From Eledone cirrhosa (taxonomy: Eukaryota), in the NCBI GenBank assembly GCA_964016885.1, contig OZ024742.1, positions 144,150,001 through 144,214,000 on the forward strand: DNA of 64,000 bases. The letters run 5' to 3'. A program made the translations under genes and the position numbers. Below, one piece after another: positions 7,461-61,805 of the stretch (positions within the stretch are counted from its first letter, which is position 1; each line of letters starts with the position of its first letter). The notes under the pieces are model-generated. The model searched no databases. It saw nothing but the letters and a program-made list of their open reading frames with translations, and had not been told where the DNA came from.

Positions 7461-8565
7461 GAACAAAGTTGACTCAGACTCAGAAGCTCCCGCGTCTTGA
7501 GACGCATGAGGCAATCATAATGTTCCATCGCGTTCGGTCAGCAGCCAGTTGTACAGCGTCCCGCCATTGTCTGTTTGTCGCTCGCAGGTCCCTCTCAACT
7601 GTCTGGCGCCAGTTTATATTGGGTCGCCCTCTCCATCTGCTTCCCTGCGGGCTCCATTTAAGTACTTGGTTCGCCAGTCTCTCCGGAGGAAGTTTCAAAG
7701 CGTGTCCAAACCAGCCCAGGCGTCGCTTGCAGATGGCAGAAGAGACCAGCTGCTGGTTGGTGCGGTTCCTGACTTCCTGGTTTGTTACATGGTCACTCCA
7801 TTTAATCCCCAGGATCTTTCGCAGACACCTGGAATCGAATGCGTCCAACTTCTTCTCTTGGCTGGTCTTAAGGTGCCATGTTTCACTTCCGTACAAGAGT
7901 GAAGACAGCACGTTGCTGTTGTAGAATCTCATCTTTGTTTTGAGGGTGAACTTCCTGCTCCTCCAGATCTTGACAAGCTGGTTAAATGCTGCTGAAGCCT
8001 TTCCCATTCTACATTGCAATTCACTGTCCATGGTGCCCTCATTGTTAATGGAGCTTCCTAGGTAGGTGAAGTTGTCCACTATCTCCACCTCCCCCTGTTC
8101 AATGAAGACACTGGTTGGTGGTGGGTGTGTCTCAGATAACATGCTTTTGGTCTTCTTGGCACTGATATTGAGACCTAAGCTTCCTGCTTCGACATTGATA
8201 TTGTTCACAATGATTTGCAGGTCAGCTGTGCTCTCTGCAAGTGCAGCAATATCGTCCGCAAAGTTCAGGTCAGACAACTTTTGCTCTCCCACCCAAGATA
8301 TACCCTGGTCTTTAGACGCTCTTCTTAGTACCCAGTCAATGGCTATGGCAAAGAGAATTGGAGAGAGCGAGCAACCTTGACGCACGCCAGTAACCACCTC
8401 AAACCAGTCACTGTAACCATCCTCTGTCCGTATGCAACACTTGGAGTTTGCGTAAATCTGTTTGATTACAGAAATGACTTTCTGGGGCAGACCATACTCA
8501 TGCATGATGCTCCAGAGTGACGGTCGATGAATGCTATCGAATGCTTTGGAGAAATCGATGAAGCT
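7461..8565 (-). mobile_element. 5'-truncated RTE-clade LINE with target-site duplication
   Basis: RT-bearing ORF; short (TGAGTC)n tail; TSD GAACAAAGTTGACT at 7461-7474 and 8630-8643. Confidence 0.9.
7480..8565 (-). pseudogene. Reverse transcriptase plus C-terminal region of a LINE ORF (N-terminally truncated, frame uninterrupted for ~360 aa)
   Basis: Motifs FIDFSKAFDSIHR, GVRQGCSLSPILF, LNFADD, FTYLGS, LLYGSETW, RRLGWFGH, GRPNINW. Confidence 0.92.
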
Positions 8566-10206
8566 GAAAGTCTCGAACAAAGTTCGGAAAGAGGATTGTA
8601 TATATATTGCTGTAGAAGGCGAAAGTTTCGAACAAAGTTGACTTAAGAGTAAACTAAAGCAACAATAGAAAACAATCTTTCCTCACCCTGTCTTACTATT
8701 TCTCTACTTCTATACCCACCTCTATACCCACATACACATACACACACACGTACATACACTAGATATGTCTAACAAGAACCACTCCTCTGTATCTGTCAGG
8801 TTTAAATAAAAGATGACTTACAACAATGGAAGTATTTTTTTGGAGAAGTTTATTACAAAGCTTTGGTTAATCTACCCCTCATGGGGATATGTGAATATGT
8901 ATTTGTGTGTGTGAATATATATGTGTGTGTGCATGTGTGTTTATCTAAGGAGTGAGAGCAATGGGAATATATTTGGTTGTTGTTATAATGACTTTCATTT
9001 CATGTATGAATATGAATAAATGAGAGCAATAGGAATGCATATATATAATTATTTTGCTGTTATGACTGTGTTTATGTGTATGAATAAATGAAAGTGATAG
9101 GATTGTATATATATTGCTGTAATAACTATAGGAGTGTGTGTGTAAGAGAGAGCATATAAATGGGTGTGGAATGAATGTTGTATAGATCCTAATAAAAAAT
9201 AAAAAATTGTTTTGGTGTTAAGTAAAACAAATCCTTTTTTGGTAGCACCAAAAACAAATGTTTGTAAAACCTATCAAATGGAAATACCAATGAGTGTACA
9301 TACATACAATTAGAGACTACTATTAGAACTTTATTATTAATAATTTTATCTTTATCAGTGGTTTAATACACTCTTTTGTACCTGACACAAAGGCAAAGTT
9401 TGTAAATGACCTCAATGCCTGATTGGTACTGCATACCCAGACTGTTTGAGTAATCCACAGAATATGGGAACATATATAAGTGAGATGTACCTGAGAGATC
9501 AGTAGCTCTGCTTGAGTACTGACTAAGTCTGTGATAATCCAATTACTAGCAAGGAGAATAGACTTTAAATGATGATAATGAAGAAGATGATGATAATATG
9601 ATGATGATGAACGGATAAAAAACAAAGTTGACTGTAGTGGTATCTGAACACAAAACATAGACATACCCAAGCCACACGTCGCACTCAGAGCTAGTGTCTG
9701 GGTATGGACGTGCAGTGCACCCATATTTTCCCAAATAAAATAATGTCAACTTACAGTTTAGTAAGCTGATACACCTAGTTTTTGACAATTATATATATAT
9801 ATATGATGGCTGCCCCCTCATTATTGAGTATGGTCATTGCACGATATAACATTATTAATCATTATCAATTAATGCTATCGTGCATTGCCTGCGCATGAAG
9901 ATTTTTTTAAAAGTGAGGAAGGACTGTGCACTGAACCAATCCCACTCTCTGAGCGACAGTAGCTATAACTCAAAAAGAAGAAAAGATCAACATCATCATC
10001 ATCGGTATCTACTGAGCCGCAGGTTTTATGTCAGAGTTATCCCAGTTTCCTGAGTTGCCTTCTCCTAGAAGAATGCCCTGACAAAGGCTAGGGTCCTTCA
10101 CACCCAGTGGTTTAACCGTGCGATCGGGTATCCAGCCTGATTATTTTTCATTTCTTCCTCTTCACACTCTCTATCTTTCTATTTCATCTTTTATTTCTCT
10201 TTTTAA

Positions 10207-15145: not shown

Positions 15146-15467
15146 GTAACAATATCTGTGAATGTGAACAGAAAAACAGTGCTCAATCGGGAAGAGAGCG
15201 GATATATTATATTTATTTATGTTCATACACAGAAAAAAGGCACTACCCAAGGCTTCAAGGCCCAAATTTGACCATACCTCCAGATAACAAGAGGCATCAA
15301 AATAGTGACCTTATTCAGGCCGTAATACGAGTTTATCTCATATTAACACCTGAAGAAAGGTCACTATTTTGATGCCTTTTGTTATCTGGAGGTATGGTCA
15401 AATTTGGGCCTTGAAGTCTTGGATAGCACCTTTGTTCTGTGTATGAATATAAATAAATATAATATAT
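15146..15467. mobile_element. Fold-back cassette, Penelope-like pLTR remnant (family P1)
   Basis: Inverted arms ~15202-15320 / 15349-15467; ~55 bp extra tail on the left; (TA)n on both sides. Confidence 0.75.
15347..15428 (+). ncRNA. Hammerhead-like motif with ~56-nt stem II (mirror copy on minus strand at 15239-15320)
   Basis: CAC-CTGAAGA-AAGGTC...GGCCTT-GAAG-TC TTG GA-TA; the mirror arm has GAAG-CC TTG GG-TA-GTG; GAAG replaces canonical GAAA. Confidence 0.5.
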
Positions 15468-15497
15468 ATCTATATATATCTATATATATATATATAT

Positions 15498-15686
15498 ATA
15501 GGAAAATGTTTGACCCCAACGGCAGAGCTCAAGCCGTTTCGACGGCTATTTCAGTCCAGAAATAGCTGTCGAAACGGCTTGAGCTCTATCGTTGGGGTCA
15601 AACATTTTCCTATTACCCACTCTACTACCCTAAGTATTGAGTACTCTGGTGCATTATGGTCCATCTTACCACAGCTCCTTCGTTAT
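15498..15686 (+). mobile_element. Fold-back cassette (family P2)
   Basis: 55-bp arms 15498-15552 / 15559-15613 with 3 transition mismatches, 6-nt loop and ~75 bp tail; relatives at 16139-16191 and 37237-37383. Confidence 0.75.
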
Positions 15687-15823: not shown

Positions 15824-16138
15824 CAGTTGCAGAGGATAAGGTGCTTATATGTGGTTGGTATGCTGTAACTTTGTAAGGATAAGCTGGTTCAGGCGATCCA
15901 AAAGTACTTCACATCAGTAGTTTATCCCAGCTAAAAGTTGGTGACGAAGTATCCATTTATCAAATTAAAAGTAGTTGAGGCGGGGTTACTTCACCATGAT
16001 TGCTTTATTGCATGTTACTTCATCAGATGCTCATACAATCATAGGTGTAGTTATGCAATCATGGGGATATGTCGCTGGTCATGTATTACCATCCAGGTGT
16101 GATGCCAGCAGACATATATACACATATATATATATATA

Positions 16139-16191
16139 TAGGAACAAGTATGACCCCGACGGCAGAGCTCAAGCCGTTTCGACGGCTATTT
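16139..16191 (-). mobile_element. Single arm of family P2 inside (TA)n
   Basis: TGACCCCGACGGCAGAGCTCAAGCCGTTTCGACGGCTATTT matches 15511-15551. Confidence 0.8.
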
Positions 16192-16342
16192 ATATATAAC
16201 CAAAGATTAATATGGTTCATTGATTACTCAATGAATATAATTTTACAATAGATTAAAAGCACTCTACAAAGAAGTTTTCTGGAGTTATTAATATTATTCA
16301 AAATATTAATAAATGAAGACATTCACATAATCAAAATATATG

Positions 16343-16403
16343 TTTTATTATATATATTTCAAAGTACTGTGCTGTTTTTTCAGTACGTTCTCGTCAGATA
16401 AAA
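16343..16403 (-). ncRNA. Type-I hammerhead ribozyme motif, core intact
   Basis: Minus strand: TTTTAT-CTGACGA-GAA(C)GTACTG loop CAGTACTTT-GAAA-TATATA-TA-ATAAAA; 6-bp stem I, ~9-bp stem II, palindromic stem III. Confidence 0.75.
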
Positions 16404-16406
16404 TAC

Positions 16407-16480
16407 ATGAATTGATGTATGACATACCTCAACAGTCTTGATCCATCAAGACTGTTGAGGTATATCATACATCAATTCAT
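16407..16480. repeat. 36-bp-arm hairpin palindrome immediately 5' of the minus-strand hammerhead
   Basis: ATGAATTGATGTATGACATACCTCAACAGTCTTGAT-CC-ATCAAGACTGTTGAGGTATATCATACATCAATTCAT, one mismatch. Confidence 0.9.
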
Positions 16481-16817
16481 TGTGTGTGCTCCTAACACAA
16501 ATGATCATAATAATAGTCATTCACTATAAATAATACCTGAGAAAATAGGGTAATGTACCTTTGGAGACATAAAAAATTGGAAAGAGATGCCTGCAAGGAA
16601 TCAAACACTACATCTTTTGATGTTGGTCGTATGTATTAACCACTATGGTAAAGAGCAGCTGGCCACCAATTCTATCATTTTTTAAAACATCTAAAGGATG
16701 GATGATTCAATTCATTGGAGGCACTGTGTGCACTTTTTTCTTTCTCCAGGAGTACTTTCCTCAATATTTTCAACTTTATAGTGGTTGTCTAATATTTTGG
16801 TCATTGAACCACACAAC

Positions 16818-18407: not shown

Positions 18408-18449
18408 CTGACTGAAGATTTGACAAAGTCAATGAAACACGTGTATCCA
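18408..18449 (+). ncRNA. Minimal type-I hammerhead motif
   Basis: GA-CTGAAGA-(T)TTGAC AAA GTCAA(T)-GAAA-CACGTG-TA-TC; palindromic stem III, GUA site, eroded stem I; ~40 nt tail then (TA)n. Confidence 0.65.
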
Positions 18450-19202: not shown

Positions 19203-19365
19203 TCAAAGGTATATATTGAGTTAGAAACTCAAAATAGTCTCTTACAATTAAATAGCTCAAGGAAAGAGATTTTTCCGAGCCATGTAATATAACTGAATAT
19301 AAAAGAGATATAAACACAGATACATACAGATACATATATGTGTTTATGTCTCTTTTATATTCAAT

Positions 19366-19370
<5 letters not shown>
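19203..19370 (-). mobile_element. Short fold-back cassette between (TA)n tracts, no ribozyme core seen
   Basis: Arms ~19287-19318 / 19339-19370 (2 mismatches); unique ~85 bp tail on the left. Confidence 0.55.
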
Positions 19371-27171: not shown

Positions 27172-27362
27172 TATTACTGGTACTTTATTTTATCGACCCT
27201 GTAAGGATGAAAGGCAAAGTTAACCTCAGCGGGATTTGGTCTGAGTTCAAATCCCGGCGAGGTTAACTTTGCTTTTCATCCTTACAGGGTCAATAAAATA
27301 AAGTACCAGTAATGCACTGAGATAATTGCTGGACTTGTACCAAAAGTAGAAACAATTATTAT
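27172..27362 (+). mobile_element. SINE-B with an inverted 5' duplication
   Basis: ~27172-27237 is the reverse complement of ~27248-27313. Confidence 0.8.
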
Positions 27363-37240: not shown

Positions 37241-37383
37241 CGAAGGAATTGTGGTAAGGAACCAGATGGACCATAACGCACCAAAGTACTCAATACTTTA
37301 GTGTAGTAGAGTGGGTAATAGGTTTAATCCAGAAATAGCCGTCGAAATGGCTTGAGCTCTGTCGGGGGTCATACTTTTTCCTA
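37237..37383. mobile_element. Family P2 cassette, rearranged (tail on minus strand, body on plus strand)
   Basis: 37237-37322 matches the reverse complement of ~15609-15686; 37328-37383 matches ~15555-15613; (TA)n on both sides. Confidence 0.75.
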
Positions 37384-37395
37384 TATATATATATA

Positions 37396-37992
37396 TAAAA
37401 TAAAAGAAATAAGTCAAATGTTTAAAATTTGGCTTCGTTTATTACTGCTATATATATTTGGGTGACAGCCATCTTTGGCTGTGACCTCTTCAGGCAGTCC
37501 GAATTAGTGTGGTAGAGACGAGTACACATGTTGTTGAGGTGTTTAACTTTGTCAATACTCTGATATGCCCAGTTCCTGGTTGGGTTGTTATTTCACTGAG
37601 GAACTGGAAATGCCCAGTTCCTGGTTGAGTTGTTATTTCACTGAGGAACTGGAATCATATGATTCCAGTTCCTCAGTGAAATAACAACCCAACCAGGAAC
37701 TGGGCATATCAGAGTATTGACAAAGTTAAACACCTCAACAACATGTGTACTCGTCTCTACCACACCAATTCGGACTGCCTGAAGAGGTCACAGCCAAAGA
37801 TGGCTGTCACCGAAATATATATAGGAGTAATAAATATATATATAGCAGTAATAAACGAAGCCAAATTTTAAACATTTGACTTATTTATTTTATTTTACAT
37901 TACTCCGGAGTAACCAAACCAACCTGCGCACTTCGTTGAGTGCTCCAATCTGTATACTGAGGTGTTGGTATACAACCAACATATACTAAAAA
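37396..37992 (+). mobile_element. Fold-back cassette (family P4): ~220-bp arms, no loop, ~95 bp tail
   Basis: Centre GGAATCAT|ATGATTCC at 37658/37659; arms reach ~37396 and ~37897; ~45-bp duplication in the left arm and ~21-bp duplication in the right; (TA)n on both sides. Confidence 0.85.
37774..37828 (+). ncRNA. Type-I hammerhead motif (mirror on minus strand at 37444-37498)
   Basis: ACTGC-CTGAAGA-GGTCACAGCCA AAGA TGGCTGTCACC-GAAA-TATATA-TA-GGAGT; the mirror arm has perfect stem I' GCAGT but CAAA. Confidence 0.72.
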
Positions 37993-41797: not shown

Positions 41798-41847
41798 TTT
41801 CTAATGTCCAAAAGAAAAAAAGATTTTTTTCTTTTGGACATTAGAAA
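41798..41847. repeat. Perfect 24-bp-arm hairpin
   Basis: TTTCTAATGTCCAAAAGAAAAAAA-GA-TTTTTTTCTTTTGGACATTAGAAA. Confidence 0.9.
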
Positions 41848-59096: not shown

Positions 59097-60710
59097 CATC
59101 ATCATCATCATCATCATCGTTTAACGTCCATCTTCCACGCTTGCATGGGTATGGACGGGAGTTTTCCCACTTGAGGCAAGATTGGTTGTCCTGCTCGTAT
59201 AGGACTGTCTGGTGGGTTTTCTACGGCTGGATGCCCTTCCTAACACCAACCACGTTTACAGTGTGGACTGGGAGGTTTTTACCGTGTTACCTACACGGCC
59301 ACATTACAGCGTGGACTGTGTGTTTTTTTGTCGTGACACCTACACGACCTCATTTGTTTCGGACTGGATGTTGTGGTACCAACATAACTTTACATTGAAA
59401 GGGGTGGTGTGGATGGGGTGGGGGTAGTGGGACGGGGGGGGTATTTTTGTTAAGAGGTGCCTACTGACTGTAGGTTTCGCTTTGTACTTAGGTAAGGCGG
59501 GTCTCTGTATTACTGTGTAGGGCCAAAGATCTCAGTCCAGTGACATTGTCTTAGAGAGGTGTAAGTGTGTGAGGTTGGAATTTATCAAGTCGTCCCAGGT
59601 TTTTCTGGGTCTGCTTACTCTATTCCGTGGCTACCGTCTATTTTTATCGCCCTGCACTTTTTTATACAGCTATCGTCTTTCATGCGCATCACCTGACCGT
59701 ACCAGCATAGTCTTCTCTCGAGTAAACAACATCTGATCCCTCTTATTCCTAATTTCTCCCTTAATTCATTTATGCTTTGCCGTTCATGTATATTACTATT
59801 ACACATCCAACGGTGCATGCAAGCTTCGTTCCTCTCCAGTCTGTGTATATCCTCTGCACACAATGCCCAGGTCTCACTGCCATGCAACATTGCTGTTCGT
59901 ATGCAGGCATCATACAGCCTGCCTTTTATTTTTAGAGAGAACCCTTTAGCGGCCAATAGTGGTATAAGCTCTCTGAACTTTTTCCATCCCGTTCTGACTC
60001 TAACTACTGTACTTTCAGAGCACCCTCCACCACTGCTGATTTTGTCACCCAGGTAACGGAAGGTGTCCACTATTTCTATAGAACCATCTGTGCAATGTAA
60101 TGAGCTAGTATTCTGTGGGCACTTGCTGCTACTTATTGCACCTGAGCACCAGCCACATATAAAATCTATATTCTTAGTTAGCTTACCTGTGATGACACTA
60201 CATCTTTTATGCACCCATACTTTACATTTGGGACATAAAATGGAGTTTCTGCCTACTCCTTTCCTACACGCTAAGCATGGCCATTTCCCAGATGGGATCA
60301 GTGCCCTATTTTCCTTCCTACAAACTAGAACTTTAGTCTTAGACAGGTTAATTTTAAGGCCTTTTGATTCTAGACCATGCTTCCATGTTTGGAATTTCTT
60401 CTCTAGTTCAGCCCTTGATTCAGCTATGAGCGTTAGATCATCTGCGTATAGGAGTTCCCATGAGCAGCCGGTCTTGAACTCCTCTGTTATAGCCTTAAGG
60501 GCAATAATAAATAGGAGGGGGCTAAGGACAGAGCCCTGATGAACACCAACTTTTACGCTAAACTCTTCACTATATTCGTTGTTAATTCTAACCTTGCTGG
60601 CTGTTTCTTTATACATGGCTTGTATAGATCTCACAAGCCATTCATCAACACCTAGTTTTCTGAGAGCCCACTAGATAATGGGGCATGCGACTATGTCAAA
60701 GGCTTTCTCC
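59097..60710 (-). mobile_element. 5'-truncated RTE-clade LINE with long 3' UTR and (GAT)n tail
   Basis: RT homology from LEKAFD (~60710) through the ORF; frameshifted RPRKTWD end; continuous to GGACGTTAAAC(GAT)n. Confidence 0.88.
59490..60710 (-). pseudogene. LINE reverse transcriptase with Cys-rich (PHD-like) insert, truncated, frameshifted near the C-terminus
   Basis: VGVHQGSVLSPLLF, LLYADDL, KWPCLACRKGVGRNSILCPKCKVWVHKRCS..CGWC, FRYLGD, GWKKFREL, MLHGSETW. Confidence 0.92.
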
Positions 60711-61266: not shown

Positions 61267-61796
61267 GTAGATAAATCTACCAAGAGTTTACGGTAGTGTC
61301 CAATCCGTATGAAGAACTCAATGTATTCCGGATATCATGGAAAGAAGAAATGTAATGAAAAATCACTTTCGGTGAAAGATAAACGGTATACAGAGTCAAG
61401 ATAAAATATTAAACAAATAATGAATAAACAATTCCTTATATTAAACAAAAAAAGTTCATTATTTAACGATCGTTTCTAGGATATATATGTGTTAGAGTTG
61501 GCATGCATATTCAACAGATCTATGTACAAAATTATACAAAATTATACAAACTATCAAGATTAAATATACATACCAACACATATATACGCCGTCTTCAGAA
61601 ATAATTTCTGAAGACGGCGTATATATGTGTTGGTATGTATATTTAATCTTGATAGTTTGTATAATTTTGTATAATTTTGTACATAGATCTGTTGAATATG
61701 CATGCCAACTCTAACACATATATATCCTAGAAACGATCGTTAAATAATGAACTTTTTTTGTTTAATATAAGGAATTGTTTATTCATTATTTGTTTA

Positions 61797-61805
<9 letters not shown>
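61267..61805 (-). mobile_element. Fold-back cassette (family P5): 202-bp perfect palindrome arms plus ~135 bp tail
   Basis: 61401-61602 is the reverse complement of 61604-61805; 1-nt centre; (TA)n on both sides. Confidence 0.85.
61604..61745 (+). ncRNA. Type-I hammerhead motif with ~115-nt stem II (identical mirror on minus strand at 61461-61602)
   Basis: ATTT-CTGAAGA-cggcgTATATATGTGTTGG...CTAACACATATATAtccta-GAAA-CGATCG-TT-AAAT; palindromic stem III, GUU site. Confidence 0.68.

Follow-up and report, generated by a model that had tools for sequence, protein, structure and literature searches.

A hammerhead motif beside a fold-back hairpin in Eledone cirrhosa probably belongs to a truncated copy of an abundant Penelope-like repeat

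Within a stretch of 64,000 nucleotides of Eledone cirrhosa DNA (the window), positions 16343-16480 carry a long hairpin and a hammerhead ribozyme motif in close succession on the minus strand. This locus raises the question of whether the two form a functional unit or are what a mobile element left behind. The evidence presented here makes it probable that the motif, referred to as 16397, lies in a 5'-truncated copy of a repeat, likely the pLTR end of a Penelope-like element (PLE) that targets (TA)n, and that the hairpin arose by snap-back of the cDNA.

The order of parts along the minus strand is outer arm, 2-nt loop, inner arm, 3 nt and a complete type I hammerhead (Table 1). This agrees with the initial annotation, which had described a near-perfect 36-bp hairpin followed after 3 nt by a full core. 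The arms are complementary at 35 of 36 positions, the odd one being a U-G wobble on the minus strand, and the fold of 16330-16479 has a z-score of -11.7. CUGANGA, GAAA and UH are arranged around three helices with the open end in helix I, as in a type I core. Stem I has 6 bp, A-U throughout, with four extra pairs possible beyond an A-C mismatch. The ~9-bp stem II of the earlier description was recovered in the window letters as 3 bp, a bulged C and 6 bp, and positions 15.2-16.2 together with loop 3 form the palindrome UAUAUA. An unpaired base between A9 and 10.1 is absent here and also at the second hammerhead of the window, 37779; it is likewise missing from some motifs in the accessible part of Fig. 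S3 of PMC4209133. Judged on these features, 16397 is a real hammerhead motif for which cleavage itself is a prediction.

Table 1. Positions of the hairpin, hammerhead and repeat features in the window
Feature	Positions	Strand	Description
Outer hairpin arm	16480-16445	-	Inverted duplicate of 16407-16442, private to the 16397 copy; one later change at 16464
Hairpin loop / fold-back centre	16444-16443	-	2 nt, window letters
Inner hairpin arm	16442-16407	-	Ordinary family sequence upstream of the ribozyme; X1 depth 95,663 (16410-16430) and 13,200 (16431-16451)
Spacer from hairpin to stem I	16406-16404	-	3 nt
Stem I 5' strand	16403-16398	-	Extendable to 16408 past an A-C mismatch
Stem I 3' strand	16348-16338	-	Core pairs 16348-16343, extension 16341-16338
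Core CUGACGA	16397-16391	-	N7 at 16393, C or U in the family
Stem-loop II	16390-16361	-	3 bp, bulged C and 6 bp, 11-nt loop; closing pair G10.1-U11.1
Core GAAA	16360-16357	-	
Palindromic stem III AUAUAUAU	16350-16357	-	Monomer 2 bp and tetraloop; dimer 8-bp duplex, -3.2 kcal/mol
A17, predicted cleavage position	16349	-	From sequence; preceded by U16350; numbering per PMC4209133
Copy, truncated at its 5' end, of a very abundant repeat; likely Penelope-like pLTR/tail	16200-16442	-	From read depth; 3' limit approximate (compared stretch began at 16200)
Common 3' terminus among other family copies, with (TA)n after it	16291	-	X1 30, X5 2 and X6 251 records, among the loose ends listed (24 of 426)
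32-codon ATG frame downstream of the ribozyme	16227-16322	-	Candidate start of the element's ORF
4-bp microhomology TTGA/TCAA	16438-16449	+	TTGA 16438-16441, TCAA 16446-16449; already in the family sequence
37779 hammerhead	37770-37855	+	~21-nt duplication after GAAA supplies a 9-bp stem III
Third hammerhead	61598	-	7-bp stem I, ~115-nt stem II, CGAUCG palindrome, UU

A descriptor that required the core, at least 5 pairs in each of stems I and II, and a palindrome in stem III matched only the 16397 and 61598 motifs in the window, and had no match in 200 block-wise dinucleotide shuffles in which stem II was limited to 60 nt. When the looser pattern of core and stem III was applied, no match was obtained in viral contigs and 36 were obtained in metagenome contigs. 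The latter were rejected as chance, since stem I reached at least 5 pairs in 0 of the 36 and their likeness to the window was AT-rich noise only; the family pattern had 0 matches in metagenome contigs. At the gathering score Rfam returned no hammerhead for this locus, and the 37779 and 61598 motifs were missed as well. The 14 Rfam matches up to E 10 were generic hairpins, none of them a hammerhead, and were rejected as microRNA evidence. A further hammerhead candidate at 18412 was discarded because its stem I has 2 bp.

Four public runs were compared with 16200-16810 at 80% likeness: X1 (contigs, possibly from the window's own sample), X4 (a second sample), X5 (organism B) and X6 (raw RAD reads under the same species label). 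A repeat family carrying the 16397 hammerhead was present in X1, X4, X5 (17 records) and X6 (2309 reads). Summed word depth in X1 was 60,000-265,000 over 16200-16430, 13,200 over 16431-16451 and 289 over 16452-16472. By comparison with a unique-flank contig depth of 10.7, the family stretch is about 6,000-25,000 times higher in X1, a ratio of summed depth that should not be read as a copy number. The RAD depth in X6 was 1226, 1040, 904, 850, 393 and 147 in steps from 16326 to 16451. The family depth falls toward the 5' side of the minus strand, which is the polarity of 5'-truncated retrocopies. Together with the loose ends, this profile shows dispersed copies that lack 5' sequence and carry the hammerhead near the 3' end, as PLEs do. 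Approximately 70% of the X6 depth passes the cleavage site and continues through the core.

On the 3' side, (TA)n loose ends before 16291 were seen in three of the four runs, 58 nt past the cleavage site. The 16397 copy extends ~90 nt beyond this point to a TATATA near 16200, where a piece of a different, (TA)n-tailed repeat follows. Both ends observed, (TA)n at 16291 and TATATA near 16200, fit the optional 3' tail and the AT-rich or (TA)n target of PLEs, and the tail is longer than the 30-40 bp published for them. No target-site duplication was recognised at the 16397 copy. Another (TA)n-tailed repeat, with three copies in the window (15498-15680, 16138-16193 and 37268-37390), adjoins both the 16397 and the 37779 elements. 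Its 15498-15680 copy carries an internal inverted duplication of 55 bp with TAGG/CCTA at its limits, and directly upstream of that fold-back an inverted repeat was recognised by eye in 15147-15470 (~15200-15340 versus 15350-15470).

Compared with the family, the 16397 copy has diverged at the stem II base. Its letter at 16389 differs in 91-99% of family depth, and 11.1 is C in 37-58%, so that the closing pair G10.1-U11.1 is G-C in that share of read depth and in the loose-end consensus. An extra C faces the stem II bulge in 10-70% of depth. At 16362 most family copies depart from the window sequence, given that X1 depth drops to 3,936. The mismatch in stem I and a wobble are closed by family variants at 16342 (23-61%) and 16406 (14-71%). 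Among the 40 of 155 substitutions listed, none affected the invariant core bases, and N7 varies. The 16397 copy is solitary, with no second family copy within the 64-kb window; head-to-tail tandem units were found neither there nor among the family joints listed. The 32-codon frame downstream of the ribozyme possibly marks the start of the element's ORF. It had no homologue in Atlas or among 1.84 billion representatives, a weak negative for so short a query. The motif does not appear in the readable text of PMC4209133 Fig. S3 or PMC8557442 file S2, and a literature search found no paper on this repeat. The 16397 repeat is apparently an uncatalogued, very abundant hammerhead-bearing family.

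The hairpin has a different distribution from the ribozyme. Family homology stops at 16442, the hairpin centre, and in all four runs the records that pass this point enter shared upstream sequence and not the outer arm (24, 3, 2 and 180 records among the loose ends listed). Given that homology ends at the hairpin centre and that other copies continue differently, the outer arm is an inverted duplication specific to the 16397 copy. Beyond 16442 the loose-end consensus diverges between runs after ~23 nt. Of the small depth on the outer arm (289), 257 of 286 at 16464 shows G, the letter of the inner arm and the family, indicating family records that fit either arm. A single X1 contig of depth 10.7 spans 16413-16810 with one other letter; as a single-copy contig across the loop and outer arm, it places the hairpin in reads. 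Perfect palindromes are a known assembly error. That single-copy contig and the one-site difference between the arms nevertheless make an assembly artefact scarcely credible as the source of the hairpin, and the shuffles and metagenome matches described above say as much of a chance origin for the core.

An inverted, 5'-truncated duplicate is thus present at the 5' junction of the 16397 copy. Past the homology stop the family continues with two variable bases, T and TCAA, and the window with CC, A and TCAA. Both the family sequence and the inverted copy have this TCAA, which is complementary to TTGA; the TTGA/TCAA microhomology is likely the site at which a snap-back, on the mechanism we infer, would have been primed. 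Opposite-strand joints were also observed at four other position pairs of the family stretch (16313/16433, 16352/16412, 16408/16440 and 16239/16442). These may represent other inverted junctions of ambiguous geometry, some of them running through the outer arm. The hairpin before the 16397 core is likely a scar left by copying and confined to this one copy.

Comparable structures are described for PLEs. Palindromes of 18 bp and, nearly perfect, 38 bp at pLTR 5' ends have been ascribed to self-priming in the accessible text of PMC3846280, which places the priming on an antisense RNA template and not on cDNA; the run data are compatible with either. These palindromes, of Pen2_Av (18 bp) and Pen3a_Av (38 bp; PMC3846280 and the Fig. 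2 legend of PMC8557442), show the same head-to-head inverted duplication, with similar length and near-perfect arms (PMC3846280). Unlike them, the 16397 fold-back is tied to a visible 4-nt family microhomology and leaves 3 nt between itself and stem I. The available portions of PMC8557442 report for PLEs copies that are 5'-truncated and inverted, tails that may be present or absent, and insertion into (TA)n targets.

A fold-back at the same microhomology could also have formed after insertion, during host replication or break repair. The window holds fold-backs in repeats with no recognised hammerhead (15498-15613 and 27173-27313), and only one of 36 sites distinguishes the arms, against many more that separate the 16397 copy from the family. 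This origin is nonetheless unlikely: the fold-back lies, head-to-head, at the point of 5' truncation, as in the PLE insertions covered by PMC3846280 and PMC8557442, and a palindrome lies on the 5' side of all three hammerheads in the window. Fold-backs are common in the 64-kb window, with further hairpins at 27173-27313 (70 bp), 41798-41847 (24 bp) and 19287-19370 (40 bp) that have loops of 1-4 nt. Adjoining the 16397 hairpin is an old inverted repeat pair (16500-16624 versus 16686-16805, 69% identity). The segment 16494-16577 is moderately repeated in the runs, with a depth of up to 4,480, and is perhaps a decayed MITE.

The initial annotation had regarded this hammerhead as the best preserved of the window and the top candidate for activity, a ranking that folding did not sustain. 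In nearest-neighbour calculations, which ignore tertiary contacts, Mg2+ and protein help, the active monomer lay between 7.6 kcal/mol (16343-16404) and 11.6 kcal/mol (16320-16410) above the ensemble. The probability of the active secondary structure was 5e-6 to 6e-9, the latter for the 16320-16410 transcript suggested in the initial annotation. Here, GAAAUAUAUAU pairs preferentially with 16341-16331 or with the 5' strand of stem I. The active dimer was 6.8-16.6 kcal/mol above the dimer minimum, a gap that is an upper bound given that a fixed structure was used, and the stem III palindrome duplex contributes only -3.2 kcal/mol to it. The ranking is further countered by the lack of a partner copy in the window, the deviating stem II base and the much better predicted fold of 37779. 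The G10.1-U11.1 pair need not be fatal, since G-U also occurs in published PLE motifs. On the other side, all core bases of 16397 are intact and it is the only hammerhead of the window left unmasked by its own palindrome. For solitary type I motifs with a short palindromic helix III, which occur by the thousands, the available text of PMC4209133 reports inactive monomers and weak dimers. The modeling predicts that the solitary 16397 copy would cleave little or not at all.

These data also bear on the hairpin as a designed cap, which might insulate the core of an active stand-alone ribozyme or feed a small-RNA pathway. Such a role would suit the intact core bases, the 35 of 36 identity of the arms and an arm that ends 3 nt before stem I, leaving the core free, unlike those of 37779 and 61598. 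The family copies, however, do not have the hairpin, and in the model it does not raise the active fold: the penalty is 10.3 kcal/mol with it and 9.8 kcal/mol without the outer arm. Together with the monomer and dimer energetics and the missing partner copy, this renders a functional cap very unlikely.

The window contains three hammerheads (16397, 37779 and 61598), and only the 16397 core lies outside a long palindrome. The other two sit in head-to-head palindromes, 37438-37834 and 61401-61805. The 37779 ribozyme, designated 37774 in the initial annotation, is within 172-bp arms (37438-37609/37663-37834) and 61598 within a 202-bp palindrome. For 37779, the ~21-nt duplication that gives a 9-bp stem III predicts an active-monomer fold. 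The minimum-energy fold was the complete hammerhead with G10.1-C11.1, at a probability of 0.59 alone, 0.10-0.42 with flanks and 1e-44 once the 172-bp inverted arm was included. Co-transcription of the inverted arm 37438-37609 is thus predicted to mask this ribozyme, whose inverted copy is without the ~21-nt duplication and has C for G12. According to the model, the 37779 region, in which the duplication mimics a dimer, would be the better bench candidate in the window. The 61598 stem I 5' strand is the centre of the perfect palindrome 61401-61805, whose 100% arm identity could be recent or an assembly effect.

The claim that GAAA-TATATA-TA of 16397 recurs identically in the 37779 ribozyme was verified: GAAATATATATA occurs exactly twice in the window, in the 16397 motif and at 37812. 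The accompanying view of the two ribozymes as otherwise unrelated held for the flanks, which are not significantly alike (the score was reached in 352 of 5000 and 778 of 2000 shuffles), and failed for stem II, whose layout both families have in common. In each, stem II has 3 bp, a C-C mismatch and 6 bp, with no extra base after A9; with family majority letters it reads G-C, G-Y, one A-U or U-A pair, the C-C mismatch and six more pairs. We infer from this layout that the 16397 and 37779 families may descend from a common ancestor, a simpler account of their identical stem III than target mimicry would give.

Target mimicry would have a cleaved RNA ending in UAUAUAUA anneal to nicked (TA)n DNA and prime integration. 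The same stem III is found in two families, both beside (TA)n, and GAAA precedes only 2 of 224 (TA)4 runs in the window, both hammerheads. Since a primer end of this type would stop copies at 16349, and copies run through it among the ends listed, mimicry is disfavoured. None of the end sites shown (4 of 5) is at 16349, and the recurrent (TA)n junction lies at 16291, away from the cleavage site. In the consulted text of PMC8557442, the stems III of Hydra elements that target (TA)n are unrelated to this one, and the 61598 motif has CGAUCG. The resemblance of stem III to (TA)n, pointed out in the initial annotation, is accordingly not taken to mark the integration end, and the mimicry model is highly unlikely.

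Across frame shifts, the tail of 37779 (37855-37990, plus strand) gives peptides that end in GIQPTYTK just before (TA)n. We take these to recall the N-terminus of Penelope-like ORFs; look-ups gave no confirming match. The 44-aa frame 37855-37986 had no candidate among longer proteins, which for a short query is a weak negative. Pfam analysis of 345 of 361 filtered frames of the window revealed neither a PLE reverse transcriptase or GIY-YIG domain nor a host-gene domain; the other 16 frames overlap two LINE-type ORFs in other frames, and the 16397 copy is truncated ~45 nt upstream of its core. LINE-type reverse transcriptase fragments are present at 7483-8682 and 59618-60670, both minus strand (RVT_1, E 1.6e-24 and 5.6e-16). 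The latter has a PHD-like cysteine cluster after the reverse transcriptase (E 1.4e-4, below the Pfam cut-off). The window as a whole is AT-rich (GC 31-41%), with many microsatellites.

Given that no reverse transcriptase or endonuclease gene is linked to the 16397 family, its Penelope-like membership is presumed from its likeness to known elements. The hammerheads of metazoan PLE pLTRs (PMC4209133; Aedes aegypti and Drosophila willistoni, Fig. S3) have the same CUGANGA...GAAA core and long helix II in the accessible text. They also have the same short palindromic helix III, thousands of dispersed solitary copies and U/A-rich flanks, and the 16397 motif probably works as these ribozymes do. It differs from the PLE minimal hammerheads of that source in not having their typical unpaired base between A9 and 10.1, in a helix I of 6-10 bp that is all A-U, and in a family helix II with an internal C-C mismatch. 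The UAUAUA loop is absent from the readable Fig. S3 text, and the 16397 family has no linked ORF. Hydra-clade PLEs, including Hydra-1_Obim (PMC8557442, files S1 and S2), show the same (TA)n insertion preference and a canonical hammerhead near the 3' end. One of them, Penelope-1_SK, likewise has a palindromic stem III, of 10 nt. Most Hydra-clade motifs in the text of that source have a 3-4-bp non-palindromic stem III, and none listed matches the 16397 sequence; the readable supplement, whose motifs may be incomplete, likewise has no match to the 16397 or 37779 families.

In Poseidon PAc of Anolis carolinensis (PMC11167929), as in the 16397 family, insertion ends fall at more than one position, all well past the cleavage site, and copies retain an uncut ribozyme. 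The PAc motif is minimal and its stem II contains the ORF start; the spacing of PAc ends differs from the ~90 nt of the 16397 family (16291 versus ~16200). For this element, the sections of PMC11167929 consulted place the start of reverse transcription downstream of the ribozyme on uncleaved RNA, with cleavage only in the presence of protein.

The family might instead be a non-autonomous retrozyme or SINE-like unit, that is, a solo monomer of a tandem non-LTR retrozyme and not a truncated PLE. Non-LTR retrozymes (PMC7229834) have the same type I hammerhead and a small low-GC unit. A unit of this type would also suit the ~240-bp length and low GC of the 16397 family, its canonical-like core without the extra base, the lack of a linked ORF and the split of the loose-end consensus between runs ~23 nt beyond 16442. 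However, as defined in the available parts of PMC7229834 and 10.64898/2026.07.22.740005, retrozymes are tandem units. They form tandem repeats and circular RNA (PMC7229834), whereas the 16397 copy is solitary. The (TA)n junctions, the 5' truncation gradient, the single window copy and the absence of head-to-tail joints among those listed also argue against a retrozyme, as does the efficient monomer cleavage reported for invertebrate retrozyme hammerheads (PMC7229834). A retrozyme is therefore improbable, and since the preprint 10.64898/2026.07.22.740005 derives retrozyme-type units from PLE pLTRs, it would in part coincide with the truncated-PLE reading.

The truncated-PLE reading can be set out as follows. 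The repeat covers about 16200-16442; its depth declines in the 5' direction, and (TA)n is a frequent end. Uncleaved RNA would have been the template: from a nick at a TA-rich site, reverse transcription would have begun downstream of the ribozyme and proceeded through the core. It would have stopped ~45-50 nt past the core, at the family TTGA/TCAA microhomology, where the junction is observed. The 3' end could then have folded back, primed itself, copied 31-36 nt and joined the flank. The resulting ribozyme, with its short palindromic stem III, is predicted to need dimerisation or the element's protein in order to work, if it works at all; the weakened stem II base and the competing helix over GAAA would leave little or no cleavage.

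It can be imagined, as a very long shot, that the snap-back welded a Dicer-sized hairpin onto an intact, unmasked hammerhead, and that trans-dimers through UAUAUA release a hairpin that yields siRNAs, a self-made silencing locus. If so, read-through RNA would dimerise via UAUAUA with some 10,000 sister-copy transcripts or with the second family and be cut in trans. It would then yield siRNAs against the whole family, and ribozyme dimers would form across families through the shared palindrome.

Given what is likely a copy-specific scar and a poor predicted fold in one family copy, the feature is ordinary and is not evidence of a new RNA device. A clean 5' fold-back with microhomology bears modestly on how Penelope-like elements make inverted 5' ends, and a family with about 10^4 copies, a figure drawn from depth that is not a copy number, would suit the counting of fold-back junctions and 3' ends.
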